A stretch of DNA of 64,000 bases, from NCBI RefSeq assembly GCF_044324875.1, contig NZ_CP172185.1; one strand, given 5' to 3'. Under the pieces are notes generated by a model, which saw only the letters and a program-made list of their open reading frames with translations, ran no database searches and was not told the DNA's origin. Source of the stretch: Escherichia coli. Lineage in GTDB: Bacteria > Pseudomonadota > Gammaproteobacteria > Enterobacterales > Enterobacteriaceae. The first letter of the stretch is position 1. Each line of letters begins with the position of its first letter. A program made the position numbers and the translations under genes. Of the stretch, positions 3,135 through 64,000 are shown piece by piece.

Positions 3135-4421
<1,287 letters not shown>

Positions 4422-11523: not shown

Positions 11524-11571
11524 TTTCTTATTCCTCTTTAAACCTGTCTGAACCGTTATCAACCGCGCAAT

Positions 11572-11606
11572 AAAAAAGCCCCCGGAAGGTGATCTTCCGG
11601 GGGCTT
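11572..11606 (-). terminator. his attenuator terminator
   Basis: Minus strand reads gaaagcccccggaagatcaccttccgggggctttttt; a perfect GC hairpin plus T-run between hisL and hisG. Confidence 0.85.
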
Positions 11607-11668
11607 TCTCATGCGTTCATGCACCACTGGAAGATCTGAATGTCTTCCAGCACACATCGCCTGAAAGA

Positions 11669-11719
11669 CTAGTCAGGATGATGGTGATGATGGTGGTGTT
11701 TAAATTGAACGCGTGTCAT
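11669..11719 (-). CDS. hisL: his operon leader peptide
   Basis: Minus-strand ORF ATG ACA CGC GTT CAA TTT AAA CAC CAC CAT CAT CAC CAT CAT CCT GAC TAG = MTRVQFKHHHHHHHPD, with seven consecutive His codons. Confidence 0.95.
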   Translation of the reverse strand: MTRVQFKHHHHHHHPD

Positions 11720-39753: not shown

Positions 39754-39869
39754 AGTAAATGCCAAAAAAAAGGAAGGTTTAAATAAACGCTGGAATGAAT
39801 AATTAACGTTATTTACGTGTTATGGGAAAAGTGAAATCAGCTCATAACATACGCTGACAGGTGTGGCAC

Positions 39870-40080
39870 ATTTGTGCCAGGGAAGAGGGTGAAAATCCCT
39901 CGCAGCCCCCGCTGCTGTAATGCTGACAAACCCGAAAATGCCACTGATCGCGAGATTGGGAAGGTCGGGTGAGGATGACGCTAAGCCAGAAGACCAGTCT
40001 GTCAGTCAATACCAACAACTTCGGTGGGAAGTGGGTTGCCCGGAAGCGTCCGGTAGAGTACTGGCGCGTCTTTATACCCC
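39870..40080 (+). promoter_or_regulatory. cobalamin (B12) riboswitch; boundaries approximate
   Basis: Contains the conserved riboswitch blocks ggtgaaaatccc, cgcagcccccgctgctgtaa, gccactg, gggaaggtcgg and the B12-box-like aagccagaagaccag. Confidence 0.65.
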
Positions 40081-40234
40081 TACCACCCTGAAAGGATCAG
40101 GGTATGGCGGCATCATTTAGTTCTTTCATCGCAGTGCCAACAGGCACCAGAGCTGCACTTAAGGTGTGGCAATCTTGTTTCATGGCTCATCAACCAGACC
40201 GCCATTACAGGAAACTAAGTGGAGGGCGAGGGAC

Positions 40235-40672
40235 ATGAAAACGATAAGACCCGAATCGATAGCTCTTTTTTGCCTCTTATCTGGAGATGCGGACCTGGCG
40301 AAACAATTGGCTGAAATATTGCCAATAACTTGTTTTGTTGGTGAGGACTGGCAGCAAGATTTCCAGCCTCTTGACGGTGGGCCTGTGCAATCGTTATCAG
40401 ATGTGTATGGCGATTATTCAGTGCTGCTATTGATAGCAGCTGAAAGCGAGATATCCGTACCAGAATGGCTCGCTCATTCTGAAGGAACGACGGTAATTGT
40501 GATTGCAGAACACAATGCCCGTTTGCTGACTGGTCCGGCTGGTGGGGCTGTAGCATTGATCCATTATCTGAATGAAATCTGTCATTCCAGAGAAACCGCT
40601 GTCAATGACGCATTTTGTCGTACGTTAACACGAGGAAGTCTGGCTATTCCGCAATGCCATCTTCTTTCGTAA
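40235..40672 (+). CDS. hypothetical protein downstream of the B12 riboswitch (possible cbi-deletion remnant); alternative start at 40166
   Basis: Open frame of 146-168 codons with protein-like composition immediately 3' of the riboswitch and 5' of cobU; no family recognised by eye. Confidence 0.3.
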   Translation: MKTIRPESIALFCLLSGDADLAKQLAEILPITCFVGEDWQQDFQPLDGGPVQSLSDVYGDYSVLLLIAAESEISVPEWLAHSEGTTVIVIAEHNARLLTGPAGGAVALIHYLNEICHSRETAVNDAFCRTLTRGSLAIPQCHLLS

Positions 40673-40805
40673 TGGATTGAGAATGCTGGATTTTTAATTA
40701 TATTACGCGCAGTATTAATCGCGTAAATGTTTTGCGGTCAGCAACGGTGGGGGATCCATTGTTCTGTTCAATGAATACCATCATACAAATGAATCAGGAG
40801 TCGGT

Positions 40806-41351
40806 ATGATGATTTTGGTGACGGGGGGCGCACGGAGCGGGAAGAGTCGCCACGCAGAGGCGCTTATTGGGGACTCTTCACAGGTTCTGTATATCGCCAC
40901 CTCGCAAATCCTTGATGATGAGATGGCTGCACGGATAGAACATCATCGGCAAGGCCGCCCGGCGCACTGGCGCACGGTGGAGCGCTGGCAACATCTTGAT
41001 GAATTAATTCATGCAGACATTAACCCGCATGAAGCTGTGTTGCTGGAATGCGTTACCACAATGGTGACTAATCTGTTGTTTGATTATGGCGGCGATAAAG
41101 ACCCTGATGAATGGGATTATCAGGCGATGGAACAGGCAATTAATGCTGAGATTCAGTTGTTGATTGCTGCCTGCCAACGTTGCCCCGCGAAGATTGTATT
41201 AGTGACTAACGAAGTGGGAATGGGGATTGTGCCGGAGAGTCGTCTGGCACGACATTTTCGTGATATTGCCGGGCGGGTAAATCAGCAGCTGGCCGCTGCG
41301 GCAAATGAAGTGTGGCTGGTGGTTTCGGGTATTGGAGTAAAAATCAAATGA
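40806..41351 (+). CDS. cobU: adenosylcobinamide kinase / adenosylcobinamide-phosphate guanylyltransferase
   Basis: 181-aa [26 protein letters not shown]... (P-loop). Confidence 0.92.
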
Positions 41352-44179: not shown

Positions 44180-44234
44180 GAGCGTTGGTAATTAGAAAGC
44201 AAAAAGCCTGCTAGAAAGCAGGCTTTTTTGAATT

Positions 44235-44310
44235 TGGCTCCTCTGACTGGACTCGAACCAGTGACATACGGATTAACAGTCCGCCGTTCTACCGACTGAA
44301 CTACAGAGGA
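44235..44310 (-). tRNA. asnV: tRNA-Asn (GUU)
   Basis: 76-nt reverse complement of tcctctgtagttcagtcggtagaacggcggactGTTaatccgtatgtcactggttcgagtccagtcagaggagcca. Confidence 0.95.
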
Positions 44311-44564
44311 ATCGTGTGAACGGGGCGCATATTAATGGCAGTGCATGGTGATGTCAAAGGGTGAAATGCATTTTTTTGTTTGTTTGCTGTCAATTTCAAC
44401 AAAGTGGTGAGCTTTCAATCTTATTGGTAATGAACCATCGTGGTGCATACCCTCCTTTTATGGGGCAGGGGAACGCGACAGCTGATAAAAAGAGCCAATG
44501 ACGAACCTATCATAATCTCTTATTTGACAGTTGGTTAGCTTGTACATCAACGCCAAAATAAAAC

Positions 44565-44580
44565 TGGCAAGCATCTTGCA
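44565..44580 (+). promoter_or_regulatory. sigma54 (-24/-12) promoter of nac
   Basis: tGGcaagcatcttGCa has the GG-N10-GC spacing of the TGGCAC-N5-TTGCA consensus, about 55 bp upstream of the nac ATG. Confidence 0.65.
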
Positions 44581-44635
44581 ATCTGGTTGTAAGTAATGGC
44601 GGCACTTGGGCCGATTCTTATAAACCGGAGGCAAC

Positions 44636-45553
44636 ATGAACTTCAGACGCCTGAAATACTTCGTAAAAATTGTAGATATTGGTAGCCTGACCCAGGCTGC
44701 TGAAGTATTGCATATCGCACAACCAGCGCTCAGTCAGCAGGTTGCCACACTGGAAGGTGAGTTAAATCAACAGCTTTTGATTCGCACAAAACGGGGCGTT
44801 ACGCCAACTGACGCCGGAAAAATTCTCTATACCCATGCGCGGGCCATTTTACGTCAGTGTGAGCAGGCCCAACTGGCGGTGCATAACGTTGGTCAGGCAT
44901 TATCGGGGCAAGTCTCGATTGGCTTTGCGCCAGGAACCGCTGCGTCATCCATCACCATGCCCTTATTACAGGCGGTTCGCGCTGAATTCCCGGAGGTCGT
45001 TATCTATCTTCATGAAAATAGCGGTGCAGTGCTTAACGAAAAACTGATAAATCACCAACTCGATATGGCGGTGATTTATGAGCATTCCCCTGTGGCTGGT
45101 GTATCCAGTCAGGCTTTACTGAAAGAAGATCTTTTTCTGGTAGGAACTCAAGATTGCCCGGGGCAAAGCGTTGATGTTAATGCTATTGCGCAAATGAACC
45201 TCTTTCTCCCCAGTGATTACAGTGCTATTAGACTTCGTGTTGATGAGGCTTTTTCCCTACGGCGACTCACGGCAAAAGTCATTGGTGAAATTGAGTCTAT
45301 TGCCACGCTTACCGCAGCGATTGCCAGCGGCATGGGCGTTGCAGTATTACCCGAATCGGCCGCGCGTTCGTTATGTGGCGCAGTAAATGGGTGGATGTCA
45401 CGCATTACCACTCCTTCCATGAGTCTCTCTTTGTCATTAAATTTACCCGCCAGAGCGAACTTATCGCCACAGGCACAGGCAGTGAAAGAGTTGTTAATGT
45501 CAGTGATGAGTTCTCCAGTGATGGAAAAAAGGCAGTGGCAATTGGTGAGCTAA
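44636..45553 (+). CDS. nac: nitrogen assimilation control protein (LysR family)
   Basis: 305-aa ORF MNFRRLKYFVKIVDIGSLTQAAEVLHIAQPALSQQV... Confidence 0.9.
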   Translation: MNFRRLKYFVKIVDIGSLTQAAEVLHIAQPALSQQVATLEGELNQQLLIRTKRGVTPTDAGKILYTHARAILRQCEQAQLAVHNVGQALSGQVSIGFAPGTAASSITMPLLQAVRAEFPEVVIYLHENSGAVLNEKLINHQLDMAVIYEHSPVAGVSSQALLKEDLFLVGTQDCPGQSVDVNAIAQMNLFLPSDYSAIRLRVDEAFSLRRLTAKVIGEIESIATLTAAIASGMGVAVLPESAARSLCGAVNGWMSRITTPSMSLSLSLNLPARANLSPQAQAVKELLMSVMSSPVMEKRQWQLVS

Positions 45554-45654
45554 GCGTTATATCGGGATGGAATAAGATGCGGGTTTTTATTATTTGTTAT
45601 GCCGGGCATTAGACTTTAACAATAACGGGATATCTGAACTGCCCGGAGTTTACC

Positions 45655-46605
45655 GTGAATTTCCAACAACTAAAGATAATCCGCGAGGCTGCACGTCAGG
45701 ATTACAACCTGACAGAGGTTGCGAATATGCTTTTTACCTCACAGTCAGGCGTCAGCCGTCACATTCGGGAACTGGAGGATGAACTTGGCATCGAAATATT
45801 TGTTCGACGAGGTAAGCGACTGCTGGGCATGACTGAACCGGGCAAAGCATTACTGGTCATTGCAGAACGCATTCTTAATGAAGCCAGTAATGTTCGTCGG
45901 CTTGCAGACCTGTTTACCAACGATACGTCTGGCGTTCTCACTATTGCAACGACGCATACTCAGGCACGTTATAGCTTGCCTGAGGTCATTAAAGCTTTTC
46001 GCGAACTTTTCCCGGAGGTTCGGCTGGAGCTAATCCAGGGTACGCCACAGGAAATTGCGACGTTGTTGCAAAATGGCGAAGCTGATATTGGTATCGCCAG
46101 CGAGCGTTTGAGTAATGACCCGCAGCTCGTCGCCTTCCCGTGGTTTCGTTGGCACCATAGTTTGCTTGTTCCACTCGATCATCCCTTGACGCAAATTACA
46201 CCGTTGACGCTGGAATCAATAGTGAAGTGGCCGTTAATCACTTACCGACAGGGGATTACGGGGCGCTCACGTATTGATGACGCATTTGCCCGCAAAGGTT
46301 TGCTGGCAGATATTGTATTAAGTGCGCAGGATTCTGATGTCATTAAAACCTATGTTGCTCTTGGGCTGGGGATTGGATTAGTTGCCGAACAATCCAGCGG
46401 CGAACAAGAGGAAGAGAATTTAATCCGTCTGGATACGCGGCATCTTTTCGATGCCAATACTGTATGGTTGGGACTGAAGCGAGGGCAACTTCAACGTAAC
46501 TATGTCTGGCGCTTTCTGGAACTTTGTAATGCAGGACTGTCAGTTGAGGATATCAAGCGCCAGGTGATGGAGAACAGTGAAGAGGAAATTGATTATCAGA
46601 TATAG
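45655..46605 (+). CDS. cbl: LysR-family regulator Cbl (sulfonate-sulfur utilisation)
   Basis: 316-aa ORF MNFQQLKIIREAARQDYNLTEVANMLFTSQSGVSRHI... Confidence 0.9.
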   Translation: MNFQQLKIIREAARQDYNLTEVANMLFTSQSGVSRHIRELEDELGIEIFVRRGKRLLGMTEPGKALLVIAERILNEASNVRRLADLFTNDTSGVLTIATTHTQARYSLPEVIKAFRELFPEVRLELIQGTPQEIATLLQNGEADIGIASERLSNDPQLVAFPWFRWHHSLLVPLDHPLTQITPLTLESIVKWPLITYRQGITGRSRIDDAFARKGLLADIVLSAQDSDVIKTYVALGLGIGLVAEQSSGEQEEENLIRLDTRHLFDANTVWLGLKRGQLQRNYVWRFLELCNAGLSVEDIKRQVMENSEEEIDYQI

Positions 46606-46642
46606 CAAAAAGCCCGCTATAAAAGCGGGCTTTTCAGAAATT

Positions 46643-46718
46643 TGGCTCCTCTGACTGGACTCGAACCAGTGACATACGGATTAACAGTCCGCCGTTCTAC
46701 CGACTGAACTACAGAGGA
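46643..46718 (-). tRNA. asnU: tRNA-Asn (GUU)
   Basis: Identical 76-nt tRNA-Asn sequence, reverse strand. Confidence 0.95.
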
Positions 46719-46878
46719 ATCGCTGTTGAGGCACATCTTAACGGCGAAAAATCTTTTGTCAAACCCGATTTTTAAATTTCCCAACTGTTTGCCGTTTCTA
46801 TCAACAGTTTGTTGCATTTGCAGACAATTTGTTGGCGAAAATCTTTGCAGCTTTGCTGATTCTCCCTCATTATTTGAA

Positions 46879-48366
46879 ATGTGGTTTCACTTTCTGCAAT
46901 TAAGGTCGGCTTTGAATATCTCCTCTGCTTTACGCCAGGTTGTTCACGGCACTCGCTGGCACGCCAAACGCAAGAGTTACAAAGTGTTGTTCTGGCGCGA
47001 GATAACCCCGCTTGCTGTTCCTATCTTCATGGAGAACGCCTGTGTCCTGTTGATGGGTGTCCTGAGCACTTTTCTGGTCAGCTGGCTGGGAAAAGATGCG
47101 ATGGCCGGCGTGGGATTGGCGGACAGCTTCAATATGGTCATTATGGCATTTTTTGCGGCTATCGATCTTGGTACCACTGTCGTTGTGGCATTTAGTCTCG
47201 GTAAGCGGGATCGACGACGAGCGAGGGTGGCGACGCGGCAGTCATTGGTGATCATGACGTTGTTTGCCGTGCTGTTGGCAACGCTTATTCATCATTTTGG
47301 CGAACAAATTATTGATTTCGTTGCGGGTGATGCCACGACAGAAGTTAAAGCACTGGCGTTGACTTATCTGGAGCTGACGGTACTCAGTTATCCAGCAGCT
47401 GCCATCACTTTGATTGGTAGTGGTGCACTTCGTGGTGCAGGGAATACGAAAATACCGCTACTGATTAACGGTAGCCTGAATATTCTTAATATTATTATTA
47501 GCGGCATATTGATTTACGGCCTTTTCTCCTGGCCGGGACTGGGATTTGTCGGGGCTGGGTTGGGTTTAACCATTTCTCGTTATATTGGCGCAGTGGCAAT
47601 TTTGTGGGTGCTGGCGATTGGTTTTAATCCTGCGCTAAGGATTTCGTTAAAGAGCTATTTTAAACCGCTGAATTTTAGCATTATCTGGGAAGTCATGGGG
47701 ATTGGTATTCCAGCAAGTGTCGAATCAGTATTATTTACCAGTGGTCGGTTATTAACCCAAATGTTCGTTGCCGGGATGGGGACCAGTGTTATTGCCGGAA
47801 ATTTTATCGCGTTTTCAATTGCGGCTCTTATCAACTTACCCGGAAGTGCGCTCGGCTCTGCTTCTACGATCATTACAGGCCGAAGGTTGGGAGTAGGGCA
47901 GATAGCGCAAGCAGAGATTCAGTTGCGGCATGTGTTCTGGCTGTCCACTCTTGGATTAACGGCCATCGCCTGGCTAACGGCTCCCTTTGCCGGGGTTATG
48001 GCATCGTTTTACACCCAGGATCCACAGGTTAAACATGTCGTTGTGATTCTGATTTGGCTAAATGCTTTATTTATGCCTATTTGGTCTGCCTCATGGGTGC
48101 TACCCGCTGGATTTAAGGGTGCTCGCGATGCACGTTACGCCATGTGGGTTTCTATGTTGAGCATGTGGGGTTGCCGGGTTGTAGTCGGTTATGTGCTGGG
48201 AATCATGCTTGGCTGGGGTGTGGTTGGTGTCTGGATGGGAATGTTTGCCGACTGGGCTGTGCGGGCCGTGCTGTTTTACTGGCGAATGGTTACTGGACGT
48301 TGGCTGTGGAAATATCCTCGACCTGAGCCGCAAAAGTGTGAAAAAAAGCCAGTTGTGTCGGAATAA
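46879..48366 (+). CDS. yeeO: MATE-family efflux transporter
   Basis: ORF from 46726; start placed at MWFHFLQLRSALNISS...; 12 predicted transmembrane segments. Confidence 0.85.
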   Translation: MWFHFLQLRSALNISSALRQVVHGTRWHAKRKSYKVLFWREITPLAVPIFMENACVLLMGVLSTFLVSWLGKDAMAGVGLADSFNMVIMAFFAAIDLGTTVVVAFSLGKRDRRRARVATRQSLVIMTLFAVLLATLIHHFGEQIIDFVAGDATTEVKALALTYLELTVLSYPAAAITLIGSGALRGAGNTKIPLLINGSLNILNIIISGILIYGLFSWPGLGFVGAGLGLTISRYIGAVAILWVLAIGFNPALRISLKSYFKPLNFSIIWEVMGIGIPASVESVLFTSGRLLTQMFVAGMGTSVIAGNFIAFSIAALINLPGSALGSASTIITGRRLGVGQIAQAEIQLRHVFWLSTLGLTAIAWLTAPFAGVMASFYTQDPQVKHVVVILIWLNALFMPIWSASWVLPAGFKGARDARYAMWVSMLSMWGCRVVVGYVLGIMLGWGVVGVWMGMFADWAVRAVLFYWRMVTGRWLWKYPRPEPQKCEKKPVVSE

Positions 48367-48466
48367 ACGACAAAGTGCAGATTATTTCAGCAAACGATTT
48401 CAAATTTAAAAAACAGGCTTTGACATTGTGGATGAGCGTCGCTAATATTCGCCTCGTTCTCACGAT

Positions 48467-48542
48467 TCCTCTGTAGTTCAGTCGGTAGAACGGCGGACTG
48501 TTAATCCGTATGTCACTGGTTCGAGTCCAGTCAGAGGAGCCA
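48467..48542 (+). tRNA. asnW: tRNA-Asn (GUU)
   Basis: tcctctgtagttcagtcggtagaacggcggactgttaatccgtatgtcactggttcgagtccagtcagaggagcca on the plus strand. Confidence 0.95.
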
Positions 48543-48996
48543 AATTTTAGTTTTGAGACATCTCTATGAGTCTCAAGACAGTTAAAAAATAAAAATTATT
48601 TTTACCCGGTTACCTTGTAAAAAGTGACCGGGTTTTTTGATTTCTGTGTTTCGTGCGCTTAATCGAGTCTCACGCTTCAGTGAGCAAATTGCCCCTCCCC
48701 AACAGACATCACGATTCGCAAGGTCAAAAACTCTGTTCCATGAAGTACCGTACAAAGACAAAGAGAAAAATGCCTTATGCGGGATGTCGCTATCGCGTCT
48801 TTATCGGGAAACTATGCGTAATTGCCACTTTGCCTTCTGTAATCAGAAAAAGAAGAACTGGAATTTTAATAAATATTATTTCTCTGGGAATGGGGGGTTT
48901 TTATAAGCAATATGACGAGTTGAATATTATATTTTTTATAAGGATTATATGAGATTAAAGAAATCTGCCATAAAGACAGATTTCTTTAAAATATAA

Positions 48997-49713
48997 TTAG
49001 AGATTTGCGACGTTATGATAAACTTTTTGAACATCGTCGTCATCTTCAAGGGCATCAACAAGCCCTTCAAAGATTTCTAAATCTTCTGGGGAAAGCTCAA
49101 CTTCAGATTGAGCAATCATTTCTAATTCTGTTGTTGAGAACTCAGTGATTCCAGCTGCTTTTAGAGCCGCGATTCCTTTATGAAGGTCAGTAGGTTCAGT
49201 ATAAATAACAATATTACCTTCTTCTTCAGTTACATCACGAACATCAACTTCAGCTTCAAGTAAAATTTCAAAAATATGGTCAGGGTCTGTTCCTTTAAAT
49301 ACAATCACACCCGTATTGTCAAACATATAGCTGACAGAGCCTGCCGCTCCGATATTGCCGCCTTTTTTATTGAAAATTGTGCGAACGTTAGCAATCGTAC
49401 GGTTAACATTTGAAGTCAATGTCTCAGCGATAATCATTGAGCCATTAGGACCAAAGCCTTCATAACGGCCCTGCACGAACGTTTCATCTCCGCCGCCTTT
49501 GGCTTTATCAATTGCTTTATCAATAACGTGCTTTGGAACTTGTGCCTGCTTTGCTCGTTCAATAACGAATTTTAAAGATGTGTTTAATTCTGGATCGGGT
49601 TCACCTTGTTTGGCAGCGGCATAGATTTCTACACCGAATTTTGCATAAATTTTAGACGTCGCACCGTCTTTAGCCGTTTTTTTAGCAACAATATTGGCCC
49701 ATTTACGTCCCAC
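48997..49713 (-). CDS. yeeN: YebC/PmpR-family transcriptional regulator
   Basis: 238-aa [47 protein letters not shown]... Confidence 0.9.
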
Positions 49714-50054
49714 TGGAATGATCTCCTCGAAAATTTATTTACATTACTGGTAAATCGTTAACATGTGTTAATTCGGCATATTATATCATAACAGGAAAAA
49801 TCTCGTCTATTAGAAATAAAAATATTCTAAAGCCATAATATTATATTTAATCTCATAAAAACTAATGTTGTTGGCGGGATTTTTTATAATTGTGTTTTGA
49901 AAGCATACTTGCTTATAATATGTGGAAATCATTAAGGCTATAATAAAACTCGTATCCGCCCCAGGAAGCAAACAGCCTGCTTTATTGCAGGCTATTTGCT
50001 GGATGACTTACTAAATCCTTCACATCTATTCCTGATAAAAAGGAACAGAACTTA

Positions 50055-51509
50055 TTACCGGAACGGCGGCTCATTAAATGTTCGTAATTTACGTGAATGC
50101 AGTCGGTCGCCTTCTGCGCGCAGCAAATCGATCGCCCGAATGCCAATTTGCAGGTGTTCGGAAATAGCGCCTTCATAAAAACGGTTAGCCTGACCGGGAA
50201 GTTTAATCTCACCATGCAACGGTTTATCTGAAACACACAGTAGTGTCCCGTATGGCACGCGGAAACGATATCCTTGCGCGGCAATGGTTGCACTTTCCAT
50301 ATCAATTGCTACGGCCCGGCTTAAGTTAAAACGAAGTGCAGAAGCTGAGTAACGTAATTCCCAGTTCCTGTCATCTGTGGTTACCACAGTGCCAGTACGT
50401 AGCCGCTGTTTAACTTCCTCACCGGGCCTGCCGCTGACTAACTTGGTAGCGTCATAAAGCGCACGTTGCACTTCAGCAATGCTCGGAATAGGAATATCGG
50501 GCGGCAGTACCGCATCAAGAACGTGGTCATCGCGTAAATAAGCGTGTGCAAGTACATAATCTCCAATGGCCTGGCTTTCACGTAAGCCACCACAGTGACC
50601 AATCATCAACCAGACATCCGGGCGTAGCACCGCCAGATGATCGCAGATGGTTTTAGCATTTGACGGTCCCACGCCAATATTCACCAGAGTAATACCCTGA
50701 CCATCGGCGGTAATTAAATGCCATGCTGGCATCTGGTGTTTTTTCCATGCAAGGTCGGAAATGGCTTCTTCTGGCGCTTCGGTTTCGGCGGTGATCCAGT
50801 TCCCGCCAGCACAAGAAAGGGCAATGTAGGGACTATCAGGGTCGAGGATCTGGCTGCATCCCCAACGAACGAATTCATCCACATAACGTGTGTAGTTGGT
50901 AAACAAGACGAACGGCTGAAAATGTTCAACTGGCGTACCGGTATAATGGCGCAACCGCGCGAGGGAAAAATCGACGCGGCGCGCATCAAAATGCGATAGC
51001 GGGGAGAATTCAGTTGGATGATAAATGCCGTCTGCAGTTTCATCGCCAATTTGCGCCAGTTCTGTTGTCGGGAAATAGCGAGTTAACCCAGCGCTCATTG
51101 AGCGATCAAGTGTCAATTCAGAGCCATCGATGACATAAGGATAAGGGATTTCATGCTGCGAGGGTTGCACCGAGATATGCGCACCATAATCCTGATACAG
51201 CAACGTAAGTTGTTCATTGAGATACGAACGAAAGAGAGTAGGGCGAGTAATCGTGGTGGTGTAGCTGCCTGCGTGGGTAAAACGACCAAATGCGCGCGTT
51301 TTGGGGGGATTGGTTGTGCTACCGTCCCAGGTTACGGTCAGTGATGGATAGACAAAAAGACCTTGTTTGCGGGCGTTTTCATCAGGTAATTCGCCACTTG
51401 TAATATATTTGCCAATGGCGTTGCGTAATGCGACTACAGATTGCTCATACAGCGCGTCGAGTTTATCCAGTGCCTGAGCTGGGGTCAGACCGGAGCCCTT
51501 ATTATTCAT
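50055..51509 (-). CDS. amn: AMP nucleosidase
   Basis: ORF from 51614; start placed at MNNKGSGLTPAQALDKLDALYEQSV... Confidence 0.9.
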   Translation of the reverse strand: MNNKGSGLTPAQALDKLDALYEQSVVALRNAIGKYITSGELPDENARKQGLFVYPSLTVTWDGSTTNPPKTRAFGRFTHAGSYTTTITRPTLFRSYLNEQLTLLYQDYGAHISVQPSQHEIPYPYVIDGSELTLDRSMSAGLTRYFPTTELAQIGDETADGIYHPTEFSPLSHFDARRVDFSLARLRHYTGTPVEHFQPFVLFTNYTRYVDEFVRWGCSQILDPDSPYIALSCAGGNWITAETEAPEEAISDLAWKKHQMPAWHLITADGQGITLVNIGVGPSNAKTICDHLAVLRPDVWLMIGHCGGLRESQAIGDYVLAHAYLRDDHVLDAVLPPDIPIPSIAEVQRALYDATKLVSGRPGEEVKQRLRTGTVVTTDDRNWELRYSASALRFNLSRAVAIDMESATIAAQGYRFRVPYGTLLCVSDKPLHGEIKLPGQANRFYEGAISEHLQIGIRAIDLLRAEGDRLHSRKLRTFNEPPFR

Positions 51510-51610
51510 GTGTGTCTCCTGTTCCATACAATTACCGCACATCCGATAGTATGTCACAGAAATGTGAAACAAAAGTGTAAGGCGAAGATCGGATGATCTT
51601 CGCCAGACTA

Positions 51611-52927
51611 TCAAGCGCGTAGATTATCTTTCATCAACAAAGCGGTCATTGCGGAAATCAGGCATCCAGCCAGCAAATAAATGGCGACGCTATGCCAGTT
51701 CCCGGCAAAGTAAGTGATGAGTGCAGCGGCAATAAAAGGTGTAAATCCACCGCCAACCACACTGGCAACCTGATAACCGACTCCTGCACCACTATAGCGA
51801 TAACTGGCACCAAACATTTCGGTAAACATCGGTTGTTGCACACACACCACCATGTCATGCGCAATGTTTGCCAGCATTATGGAGAAGAAAACTATCCAGA
51901 AAATAGATTGTGTTTCAAGCGCCATAAAGAAAGGAAATGCGCTCAACGTTCCGATTAACGCGCCTGTGATATAAACCCTGCGGCGACCAAAACGATCGGC
52001 AAGCCAGGCAAAACAGGGAATGGTCAGGCAGCTTAATCCACCTACCAGCAAACCAATATTAAGGAAAAGTTCGCGCGGTAACCCCATATTCTGGGTTGAA
52101 TAATTAAGTGCGAAGGCGGTAACGATGTACATCGTCAGCAACTCGCACAGTCGTAGCGCAATAATCTTCAGGAAAGCACCGGGATGTCGTAATAGTGCTT
52201 CGATAACCGGAATGCGTTTTTTCGCGGCCGCTTGATTATGTTGCTGTTGTTCGAATTCCGCGGACTCCTCCATGCCATTACGCACCCACAATGCTCCCAG
52301 TACCAGTACGATGCTAAACAGGAAAGGAATGCGCCAGCCCCAGCTTAAAAACTGTTCGTCAGTCGTCATCATACTGATCAATGAAACCAGTCCAGTTGAA
52401 AGCAGTAAACCTACACCGTAGCCAACTTGTACACCGCTACTGTAAAAGGCTTTTTTATTTTTCGGTGCACTTTCAACGGAAAGTAACGCTGCGCCTCCCC
52501 ATTCGCCGCCGACGGCAAATCCCTGTATGGCACGCAGCGTCACCAGTAAAATGGGGGCCCACCACCCAATGGTCGAGAAGGAAGGAAGAATACCAATCAA
52601 GGCTGTCGCGATGCCCATCATCCAGACGGTCAGCATTAACATGCGCTTACGTCCCAGCCGGTCGCCAAAGTGACCGAAAATGACACCGCCGAGCGGACGG
52701 AAAAGGAATCCGACGCCAAAGGTGGCAAATGCGGCGAGCGTTCCCATAGCCGGGCTTACTTGCGGGAAAAACTCGCGATTAAACACCAGTGCGGCGGTAA
52801 TGCCATAGAGTAAAAAATCATACCAGTCGACGACGGCACCAGCGAAACTGCCTAACGCAGCTCGTCGGGCGCGACTTAACGAAAGCGTCCCTTCATCGGG
52901 ACGAGTGGAGATGAGCGTGGAGTCCAT
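51611..52927 (-). CDS. shiA: shikimate:H+ symporter (MFS)
   Basis: 438-aa ORF MDSTLISTRPDEGTLSLSRARRAALGSFAGAVVDWYDFLLYG... Confidence 0.9.
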   Translation of the reverse strand: MDSTLISTRPDEGTLSLSRARRAALGSFAGAVVDWYDFLLYGITAALVFNREFFPQVSPAMGTLAAFATFGVGFLFRPLGGVIFGHFGDRLGRKRMLMLTVWMMGIATALIGILPSFSTIGWWAPILLVTLRAIQGFAVGGEWGGAALLSVESAPKNKKAFYSSGVQVGYGVGLLLSTGLVSLISMMTTDEQFLSWGWRIPFLFSIVLVLGALWVRNGMEESAEFEQQQHNQAAAKKRIPVIEALLRHPGAFLKIIALRLCELLTMYIVTAFALNYSTQNMGLPRELFLNIGLLVGGLSCLTIPCFAWLADRFGRRRVYITGALIGTLSAFPFFMALETQSIFWIVFFSIMLANIAHDMVVCVQQPMFTEMFGASYRYSGAGVGYQVASVVGGGFTPFIAAALITYFAGNWHSVAIYLLAGCLISAMTALLMKDNLRA

Positions 52928-53241
52928 AATGATCCTGTTTGTACTGTCTTTTTATAATTAGTATGGAAAAGGTAACTCACATTGCCGTCGATCTATAAAC
53001 GAACCTTATGAGACTACCTCGACAGAGCGCATCTGCAAATGATTTTATGGCTGATTAACGGCAACATGAAAAATTCGCTGGAAGATGAAAGTACAGGAGT
53101 TGCTGGTGTTGTTTAAGGATTAAGCAGAGCACCCACAGGTTCGAGATATGAAACATAAAAGTCCGCATATGCACAAAATGGCACCCTGATGAGTCTGATA
53201 GACTGCATTGCATTATAACCAGTAGGGAGGCGAGGTTAATT

Positions 53242-54294
53242 ATGTTTTTAGCATCATTGTTGAGACGTATTGCATTTAGTTACTACGATTATAAAGCTAA
53301 TAATTTCAATATTGGAAAAACAGAGTTTGTTGTCATCCATATTCCCGATCAAATTGGCGATGCTATGGCCATCTTTCCAGTTATTCGGGCGCTTGAACTG
53401 CATAAAATTAAGCATCTTTTAATTGTTACTTCGACTATTAATTTAGAAGTCTTTAATGCGCTCAAACTTGAACAGACTAAATTAACATTAGTCACAATGA
53501 CTATGCAGGATCACGCAACATTAAAAGAAATAAAAGATTTAGCGAAGAACATAACACAGCAATACGGTACGCCGGATCTTTGTATAGAGGCGATGCGTAA
53601 AAAGAACCTGAAAACAATGTTATTTATCAGTCAGTTGAAAGCAAAAACGAATTTTCAGGTTGTCGGTTTAACCATGAAGTGCTATTCCCCTTTGTGTAAG
53701 ACTGCGTCCCGGATGGATCAGAATCTCCGGGCTCCCGTACCCATGACATGGGCATTTATGATGCGTGAGGCGGGTTTTCCAGCAGTCAGGCCAATATATG
53801 AATTGCCATTAAGCGAGGATGCACTCGATGAGGTGCGCGAGGAAATGCGATCGTTAGGATCTTACATTGCGCTTAATTTAGAAGGTAGCTCGCAGGAGCG
53901 TACATTTTCATTATCGATTGCAGAAAATCTAATAGCAAAAATTCAAAGTGAAACAGATATACCAATAGTGATCGTTCATGGACCCAAAGGGGAAGATAAA
54001 GCCAGGGAACTAGTGAATAGTTATAATAATGTCTACCGTTTATCCTTGTCACCCTCGATTAAACGTTCAGCAGCAATCATAAAAGATGCTTATATCGCAA
54101 TAACACCTGACACCTCAATATTACATATGGCAAGTGCCTATAATACCCCCGTTGTTGCAATTTATGCTGATTACAAAACGCGATGGCCCGCAATGGCCGA
54201 TGTCTCGGAGTCAGTCGTCGTTGGGCAAAAAATTGACAATATAAGTCTGGATGAATTCGCAAAGGCATTAAAAAGTGTTTTGGCGAGAATATGA
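53242..54294 (+). CDS. yeeL: glycosyltransferase family 9 (heptosyltransferase-like) protein, intact
   Basis: 350-aa uninterrupted ORF between shiA and yeeJ. Recalled K-12 synteny places the yeeL pseudogene here. Confidence 0.65.
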   Translation: MFLASLLRRIAFSYYDYKANNFNIGKTEFVVIHIPDQIGDAMAIFPVIRALELHKIKHLLIVTSTINLEVFNALKLEQTKLTLVTMTMQDHATLKEIKDLAKNITQQYGTPDLCIEAMRKKNLKTMLFISQLKAKTNFQVVGLTMKCYSPLCKTASRMDQNLRAPVPMTWAFMMREAGFPAVRPIYELPLSEDALDEVREEMRSLGSYIALNLEGSSQERTFSLSIAENLIAKIQSETDIPIVIVHGPKGEDKARELVNSYNNVYRLSLSPSIKRSAAIIKDAYIAITPDTSILHMASAYNTPVVAIYADYKTRWPAMADVSESVVVGQKIDNISLDEFAKALKSVLARI

Positions 54295-54873
54295 GGCAGT
54301 ATTTATGCATATTAATGCCGATCTGTTATGAACGGTGGTGTCATCAATACTCTGTGGCTGGTCAATCATTACAGAAAGCCAGTCTTTGGAGCAAAGCTGT
54401 ACTCACCGGATACGATCATAGTCACATCGAACGCGATTCTGGCGGAACCAAAACATTGTAATGTATTTCACCATCATAAATAAGGCAATCTAAACTTTAA
54501 CTCCCGTTAACTGCCATACATTATTATGAGTGGCGCTGATGTAATTTGTAATAGTGAAATATGAATTAATGTTGTTTGTACGTCCTAACATATCTTCCTT
54601 CTTGATGTAATTAGCTAAACATTAACGTGATTTGACTACATAGCAACAATGGTAGCTATCAAAAATAGCTCATGTACTTCGTTTCCTGCTGGCATGGAAC
54701 AGGTGGTTATATCGTGTGTGAAAGCTTTTATAAAAAGTAAGGAGGCTCGACTATCTTTAAACTAACAGGGGGTATGGGAAAATGCAGGTATATTAATGGA
54801 GCGTTTGACAGCAAACGAATATAAAAGCAGAGCGCCCCGAATGGAGCACTCTGTAAGAAAATATAGCGAAAAA

Positions 54874-63489
<8,616 letters not shown>

Positions 63490-63801
63490 GCTTACCTTCC
63501 CTGAACGAGCTAACATAAATGCGCCCTTTCTAGCACAGCGAAAAAAAGTAAATCCTGATAGCAATATGATTGAAAATTAATAACTTTTCGTTAAGCAGTT
63601 TTGGGTGTGAGTTGCAAGGGGGAGACTACTGAATTACTCAAGTTTTATAATCGAGGGGAAAATGGTGATGGCGTCCATAGCAAAACGCCCTCAACCATTA
63701 AGGTCGAGGGCGCTTAAGATGTCAAAAACCCGCTATCCGTTAAAAAGCAATGCTCAACTAAGGTCAGTGACATTGGGCTAAAAAAGCGAATTTTTAGAAT
63801 T

Positions 63802-63877
63802 TGGCTCCTCTGACTGGACTCGAACCAGTGACATACGGATTAACAGTCCGCCGTTCTACCGACTGAACTACAGAGGA
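63802..63877 (-). tRNA. asnT: tRNA-Asn (GUU)
   Basis: Identical 76-nt tRNA-Asn sequence, reverse strand, upstream of yeeJ. Confidence 0.95.
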
Positions 63878-64000
63878 ATCGTGTGAACGGGGCGCATATT
63901 ACTTAGCGGTACCTTGTCTGTCAACACTAAATTTCATAAGTCATTTCAATTGGTTAATTAATCTGCAAAGTTGTTAATTAATGAACATTCGTCGTCGAAA

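Follow-up and report, generated by a model that had tools for sequence, protein, structure and literature searches.

The stretch of DNA analysed, called the window here, measures 64,000 nucleotides and comes from Escherichia coli. The genes around its four tRNA-Asn genes follow one another in the order ldtA-asnV-nac-cbl-asnU-yeeO-asnW-yeeN-amn-shiA-yeeL-yeeJ-asnT-mtfA. Positions 43000-64000 have megablast matches in 5,425 of 5,426 complete E. coli genomes, and the best match, 97.7% identical over the whole 21 kb, resides in E. coli VCSW5. The order annotated in RefSeq for this strain is pduF-pocR-(cobalamin riboswitch)-cobUST-ldtA-asnV-nac-cbl-asnU-yeeO-asnW-yeeN-amn-shiA-GT9(yeeL)-yeeJ-asnT-mtfA-serU, and confirms the names asnV, asnU, asnW and asnT used in an earlier note on this DNA. 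The locus is the asnT/asnW/asnU/asnV cluster located at about 44 min in K-12. Some features lie outside the cluster. At 39842-40806 a cobalamin riboswitch is followed by an ORF of 168 codons (40166-40672), annotated as hypothetical protein in VCSW5, and then directly by cobU; no cbi genes are found between riboswitch and cobU in the window, though pduF and pocR are located just upstream. The window also holds a His leader (11570-11693, minus strand) and the sRNAs STnc230 and STnc240.

The tRNA genes and their putative signals are listed below by position.

44201-44228, canonical terminator hairpin of asnV, abutting the ldtA stop codon (fold)
44235-44310, minus strand, asnV, tRNA-Asn(GTT) (ARAGORN, Rfam, synteny)
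44329-44357, minus strand, promoter-like element of asnV, TTGACA-17-TAATAT (sequence pattern)
about 46607-46635, canonical terminator hairpin of asnU, abutting the cbl stop codon (fold)
46643-46718, minus strand, asnU, tRNA-Asn(GTT) (ARAGORN, Rfam, synteny)
46735-46762, minus strand, promoter-like element of asnU, TTGACA-16-TAAGAT (sequence pattern)
48420-48448, plus strand, promoter-like element of asnW, TTGACA-17-TAATAT (sequence pattern)
48467-48542, plus strand, asnW, tRNA-Asn(GTT) (ARAGORN, Rfam, synteny)
63777-63801, terminator of asnT, of which the left half only survives (fold, alignment)
63802-63877, minus strand, asnT, tRNA-Asn(GTT) (ARAGORN, Rfam, synteny)

Exactly four tRNA-Asn(GTT) genes, each folding into a cloverleaf with a GTT anticodon, are recognised by ARAGORN. 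The Rfam family RF00005 scores 72.6 bits at each of the same four places, and no other RNA is found by Rfam in the 44-64 kb interval. When the copies are aligned with 50-nt flanks, all 76 positions of the tRNA are invariant; ARAGORN, Rfam and alignment thus agree with the number, placement, orientation and identity claimed earlier. The 23-nt pattern at the tRNA 3' end has 4 matches, against 0 expected from 100 shuffles. The same 76-nt sequence is unchanged in nearly all of the 80 enterobacterial species-representative loci fetched with YeeO, and the four-fold identity is unremarkable, because this tRNA is the sole Asn isoacceptor and is invariant across Enterobacteriaceae. Similarity extends beyond the tRNA in pairs of copies, and measures 85 nt at 100% identity for asnU/asnW, 104 nt at 97% for asnV/asnW, 107 nt at 96% for asnW/asnT and 125 nt at 94% for asnV/asnT. 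In the four-copy alignment the conserved TTGACA and TAATAT boxes are found upstream of asnT as well. Since asnU and asnW are divergent, both of their promoter-like elements fall inside the yeeO segment. Each copy is predicted to be transcribed on its own, as a unit of one gene with a strong sigma-70 promoter and a terminator to itself.

Native junctions, made of 300 nt, the tRNA and up to 300 nt, were searched as uninterrupted sequences in the 5,426 complete E. coli genomes, a set biased towards clinical isolates; all junction counts refer to assemblies. The asnV junction is uninterrupted in 4,664 genomes, the asnU junction in 5,180, the asnW junction in 4,980 and the asnT junction in 2,671. 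The window is in the majority state at asnV, asnU and asnW; its state at asnT is shared by about half of the genomes.

The 3' flank of asnW contains the features below.

48543-48688, plus strand, left end of a fossil island (attL-proximal region, upstream of the integrase), with two hairpins; about 78% identity to island left ends
48547-49969, insertion of 1,423 bp between asnW and its ancestral terminator; GC 0.365, against 0.495 in the window
48689-48772, plus strand, 5' portion of a P4-type tyrosine integrase gene, decayed (alignment; blastn, 37/45 nt, E = 1e-5)
48992-49750, minus strand, Lactococcus-like DNA spanning yeeN and its RBS region; 80.4% DNA identity to L. kimchii over 759 nt
48997-49713, minus strand, yeeN coding sequence; YebC/TACO1 family, YebC_II, with both TACO1/YebC domains (Pfam)
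49955-49972, plus strand, possible attR remnant, very decayed and weak (visual comparison with the attR of loci L004, L085 and L048)
49967-50054, plus strand, ancestral asnW terminator (about 49970-50000) and spacer to the amn stop codon (homology, fold)

About 230 nt next to asnW (48543-48772) align with genomic islands, and the alignment reaches the first codons of the integrase. The left end is about 78% identical to the islands found at asnT and asnV in Escherichia whittamii (L004, two copies) and to the island at an asn tRNA in E. coli 2016C-3878 (L085); weaker similarity is found in loci L019, L016 and L048, and to Salmonella diarizonae and Citrobacter. Codon remnants of the integrase are recognised as ..TDTAIRK.. 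and ..YMKYRIDGKEKK.., but the start codon is missing, a deletion has removed about 70 nt, and a 1-nt deletion shifts the frame. By these alignments the asnW flank is the decayed left end, with a 5' integrase fragment, of an island of the asn-tRNA type. The candidate attR at the far side of the block (49955-49972) reads ATCC GCCCCAGGAAGCAAAC, against ATCC CAGTCAGAGGAGCCAAAT in intact islands, and is without statistical support. As no attR can be demonstrated, an integrase-mediated entry of the block is argued from the attL and integrase homology only.

The original arrangement is seen in sister Escherichia. In E69, E1V33, E. whittamii and SCPM-O-B-8794 the terminator AAAAGCCCGCTTTTATAGCGGGCTTTTTGC is located immediately 3' of asnW. 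The spacer from this terminator to the amn stop codon measures about 60 nt in the first three, about 300 nt, of unrelated sequence, in SCPM-O-B-8794. Both yeeN and the 1.4-kb block are absent at asnW in 4/4 representatives of other Escherichia species (L002, L003, L004, L006). Since the terminator lies 1.4 kb downstream in the window, and is adjacent to asnW in the sister species, a block of 1,423 bp has been inserted. At a coverage of at least 80% this block is carried by 5,394 of the 5,426 complete E. coli genomes (99.4%), K-12 derivatives, O157:H7, UTI89 and Nissle 1917 included, and yeeN is its only annotated gene in the RefSeq records checked. The block is a fixed fossil, which has apparently passed unremarked before. 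The K-12 spacer between amn and yeeN (window 49714-50054) is tabled among 'promoter islands', in the H-NS binding section of a paper that treats horizontally acquired DNA (PMC3661553). The second hairpin of the fossil (48604-48633), followed by T6 (48604-48639), has a fold z of -6.0; judged by its sequence, this island-derived hairpin probably now terminates asnW transcription.

A tblastn search with the P4-type integrase of E. whittamii finds no significant intact integrase in the 64-kb window, but noise and the short asnW stump only, and no integrase is annotated in the syntenic RefSeq region of VCSW5. No extra copy of the tRNA-Asn 3' end, as expected for an attR direct repeat, occurs in the window even with up to 2-3 mismatches allowed; intact comparator islands do feature an attR (3644-3659 in E. 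whittamii L004, 17945-17963 in E. coli 2016C-3878 L085). Downstream of asnV and asnU the flanks are clean, with canonical terminators set against ldtA and cbl, and flank alignments reveal no island-type left end at asnV, asnU or asnT. All four copies had been described as free of islands in the earlier note, which named an integrase or attachment repeat beside a tRNA as the finding that would speak against it. The description holds for intact integrases, attachment repeats and the asnV and asnU flanks; it does not hold at asnW, where a decayed integrase/attL remnant lies beside the tRNA.

P4-type islands at asn tRNAs include HPI (at asnT, a known HPI integration site), pks/colibactin (at asnW, asnU or asnV) and ICEEc1/ICEKp1 (PMC8209727). 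The 3' ends of asn tRNAs serve as attachment sites for such islands, none of which is intact in the window. Two of the genomes used for comparison have features of their own. E. whittamii (L004, 3644-7434 and 16059-21485) carries two related integrase islands, at asnV and asnT, in one genome, and at the asnV island a degenerate attR (CCAACCAGAAGAGCCA) immediately precedes the ancestral terminator. In E. coli 2016C-3878 (L085, 53-17963) an island of 15 kb separates two asn tRNAs that point towards each other. Both ends of this island have a P4-type integrase gene, one of the two being a pseudogene; next to cbl there is an attR repeat, and then comes a T6SS island. This cluster exemplifies island-driven reshuffling.

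The only annotated gene of the asnW block has its closest non-enterobacterial relatives in another phylum. YeeN is 89% identical, over all 238 residues, to a Lactococcus kimchii protein (P0012), 85% identical to the L. termiticola protein and about 78-79% identical to proteins of many Streptococcus species. The donor-type gene of L. kimchii is chromosomal, and resides in a housekeeping context on a contig of 2.1 Mb. These matches, in protein as in DNA, speak for a transfer that brought the gene into the E. coli lineage from Streptococcaceae, and on these comparisons such a transfer is very likely. That yeeN arrived together with the island is less certain, as is the lack of a prior description, and the gene could have entered the stump later. 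Literature searches retrieved no explicit report on yeeN with asnW or on horizontal transfer of yeeN. A YeeN homologue 91% identical to the E. coli protein (P0004) is named 'Putative Integrase' in a Salmonella Hvittingfoss record, evidently a misannotation.

The asnT flank differs in sister species too. One long gene lies there.

54874-63564, minus strand, yeeJ, inverse autotransporter / Ig-like repeat adhesin, 8.7 kb, between the asnT 3' flank and yeeL

The half terminator of asnT is followed by 237 nt, then by yeeJ and yeeL, and the sequence past the half terminator has no counterpart beside asnT in sister species. In sister Escherichia and in Pseudocitrobacter the asnT terminator adjoins yeeL directly and yeeJ is absent there; by this comparison yeeJ appears as an indel at the asnT flank. 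Neither the asnT 3' flank nor the yeeJ-yeeL spacer has homology to island ends in the 85 loci, and no att trace is found in them. As its GC content is normal (0.50), and integrase or att signatures are missing, yeeJ has not been classified as an integrase island. Within its ORF of 2,896 codons, three tandem repeats of 609 nt (58547-60064), 93-94% identical, are superimposed on an older periodicity of 297/312 nt. The repeats are duplications of Ig-like domains, and the likely cause of the strain-to-strain variation in yeeJ length.

The orientation of the four genes creates inverted repeats, and the segments that these bound are as follows.

44311-48466, segment that asnV x asnW recombination can invert, about 4.2 kb (nac-cbl-asnU-yeeO), with inverted repeats of 104 nt, 97% identical, at its borders
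46638-46722 and 48463-48547, perfect inverted repeats of 85 nt, bounding the yeeO segment
46719-48466, segment invertible by asnU x asnW, holding yeeO and both tRNA promoters
46879-48366, plus strand, yeeO, inside the asnU-asnW segment

Identical tRNAs with their flanks (85-107 nt) would be substrates for RecA-type homologous recombination, which would occasionally invert or reshuffle the gene blocks in between. Junctions predicted for such events were built and searched in the 5,426 complete E. coli genomes. The junction expected from asnU x asnW, in which cbl, the tRNA and the 3' end of yeeO are joined, is found full-length in 32 genomes (0.6%) that fall into several identity classes. In one of these, YZ22MPE54, yeeO is annotated on the opposite strand, the flanks are unchanged, and the alignment breakpoints fall inside the 85-nt repeats. 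The asnU/asnW inversion around yeeO, proposed earlier as a mere potential of the sequence, therefore occurs in nature, as a rare event. It should be neutral, because two equivalent tRNA promoters are merely swapped.

Recombination between asnV and asnW should leave two junctions. One, junction B, joins the nac upstream region, the tRNA and the fossil, and 265 genomes (4.9%) have it, Nissle 1917 included. The other, junction A, is seen in one genome only, that of SE15; it is nearly absent because pks sits on the ldtA side in the flipped strains. The order in Nissle 1917 is pks-int-tRNA(-)-yeeO(-)-tRNA(+)-cbl(-)-nac(-)-tRNA(+)-fossil-yeeN. An inverted asnW-asnU-asnV region of 4,309 bp has been reported in pks-positive B2 E. 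coli by Auvray et al. 2021 (PMC8209727). SE15 (L083, 9401-14853) features, besides the asnV x asnW-type inversion, an extra, frameshifted partial yeeO beside the asnW-side tRNA, a layout beyond what a simple inversion between two repeats would yield. Junction A of asnU x asnW and junction B of asnV x asnW coexist in E. coli KL53; several rearrangements must have followed one another there, with a net transposition of the yeeO and nac-cbl blocks. A rearranged junction joining ldtA, the tRNA and the 5' end of yeeO is found in 35 genomes. Its interpretation as a deletion of nac-cbl by asnV x asnU has been rejected, since nac-cbl is relocated beyond an island in 2016C-3878. The junction of a 15-kb asnW x asnT inversion was found in 0 of the 5,426 genomes; asnW and asnT are the longest inverted pair (107 nt) and yet no inversion is seen, so selection or distance matters, and not repeat length alone.

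Rearrangements are fixed at larger evolutionary distances. Genera differ in how the blocks [ldtA], [nac cbl], [yeeO] and [amn shiA] are ordered or oriented about the tRNA copies, as in E. albertii, several Citrobacter species, Kluyvera, Pseudocitrobacter, Enterobacter and Kosakonia. The tight module tRNA(-)-yeeO-tRNA(+) is kept in 36 of 70 informative loci. In other Escherichia species (L002, L003, L004, L006, about 14.9-17.3 kb) the segment [yeeL ... asnT-mtfA-serU] is inverted relative to window 53242-64000, the order being shiA- serU- mtfA+ asnT+ yeeL- hchA-. The zinT-msrPQ-hiuH-hprRS block is missing between yeeL and hchA in these species, as is yeeJ, and the breakpoints of the inversion are located away from the asn tRNAs.

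Taken together, the window very probably holds the canonical asnV-asnU-asnW-asnT cluster in its commonest layout, with the tRNA copies acting as integration sites for islands, one of which left a fossil at asnW, and as substrates for recombination; anatomy, homologies and population frequencies of the cluster are direct observations. The fossil at asnW is species-wide; it consists of the island's left end, the 5' stump of an integrase gene and foreign DNA that includes the Lactococcus-derived yeeN, and it has pushed the original asnW terminator 1.4 kb downstream. Four pristine attachment sites, never occupied, at a locus that is simply empty, would account for the lack of an intact integrase and of a duplicated tRNA 3' end, and for the clean flanks of asnV and asnU, but are very improbable: about 230 nt of the asnW flank can be aligned with the attL/integrase 5' region of islands, and a low-GC block of 1.4 kb, absent in sister species, parts the gene from its ancestral terminator. 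Nor is the flank a conserved native one, as sister species have a different, canonical flank at this place. How yeeN came to lie in the block is a closer matter. The gene may be a recent inter-phylum import from a Lactococcus/Streptococcus-like donor, lodged by the P4-type asn-tRNA island whose stump has been fixed at asnW, and this account is put forward tentatively, as one that may equally well fail. An independent insertion of naked Lactococcus DNA, by illegitimate recombination next to or into a dead island remnant, is considered rather unlikely. It would suit the small size of the Lactococcus-like part, which measures just about 760 bp (gene and RBS), the flanking AT-rich stretches of 220 bp that match nothing examined, and the absence of yeeN homologues from this island family among the fetched loci. 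Stump, yeeN and AT-rich spacers form, however, one contiguous block, bounded exactly by asnW and the ancestral terminator and wholly absent from sister species, and a weak attR-like motif is located at its far end.

The flips raise questions of a different kind. Perfect inverted repeats of 85 nt around one gene and two promoters, with both orientations found in nature, may recall a programmed, site-specific switch of the phase variation type. This is scarcely credible, as no invertase or recombinase gene lies in or beside the segment, the flipped state is found in 0.6% of the genomes only, and no expression switch is expected from an inversion that exchanges equivalent tRNA promoters and does not part yeeO from its upstream region. 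Moreover, other pairs of repeats recombine too, as general homologous recombination predicts. No recombinase ORF was found in 44-50 kb of the window, in or beside the yeeO segment, so general homologous recombination, rather than a switch, is inferred as the source of the rearrangements. The counts come from database assemblies alone, and repeats can mislead assemblers, but it is most unlikely that the flipped junctions are artefacts of the repeated tRNA. The repeats (85-107 nt) are shorter than ordinary reads, and flips have been found in 32 and 265 complete genomes, which include several identity classes and lineages, among them the independently sequenced Nissle 1917 and clone D strains. 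The flips agree also with fixed differences between species, and with a published survey by PCR and WGS (PMC8209727).

The locus is ordinary, and both the targeting of asn tRNAs by islands and the 4.3-kb inversion have been published before; the additions made here are the integrase/attL fossil at asnW, the Lactococcus-like origin of yeeN and the counts of rearrangements, and nothing further. Yersiniabactin (HPI) and colibactin (pks) islands land at the four asn tRNA genes, and a picture of the empty state, which at asnW is not entirely empty, is of help in placing island boundaries correctly. The junction counts provide a population-scale view of reshuffling by identical tRNA repeats of 85-107 nt. 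If the island account holds, yeeN, usually seen as core K-12 machinery, is island cargo, and asnW has relied on an island-derived terminator ever since the insertion. The gene would be a clean case of a Firmicute translation-factor gene fixed in E. coli, and its Lactococcus origin may interest groups studying YebC_II proteins.

The window shares with the K-12 cluster the four genes, their orientations, the tRNA sequence and the neighbours (mtfA/yeeJ, yeeN/yeeO, yeeO/cbl, nac/ldtA). Compared to K-12, the window strain has an intact yeeL-like glycosyltransferase gene, a long yeeJ ORF and pdu/pocR upstream of cobUST, all of them strain-level differences only. The inversion of Auvray et al. involves the same repeats and segment as junction B, and the window is in the non-inverted orientation; the passages seen of that paper (PMC8209727) make no mention of the inversion of yeeO alone, or of block shuffling between genera. 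P4-type islands at asn tRNAs and the asnW flank share one plan of the left end, in which about 150 nt of conserved sequence lie between the tRNA 3' end and the start of the integrase, and the E. coli HPI and the asnW block are alike in having no recognisable right direct repeat. In contrast to islands of the HPI/pks type, which vary among strains, the asnW block is fixed species-wide, is reduced to a stump of about 230 nt devoid of functional integrase or mobility genes, and retains yeeN as its sole cargo. Compared to the YebC_II factors of Firmicutes, such as B. subtilis YeeI and S. pyogenes YebC (PMC12856214), YeeN, known here from its sequence, has both TACO1/YebC domains and is 78-89% identical to the Streptococcus and Lactococcus proteins, but its host is a Gammaproteobacterium and its gene resides inside what appears to be a fossil island linked to a tRNA.
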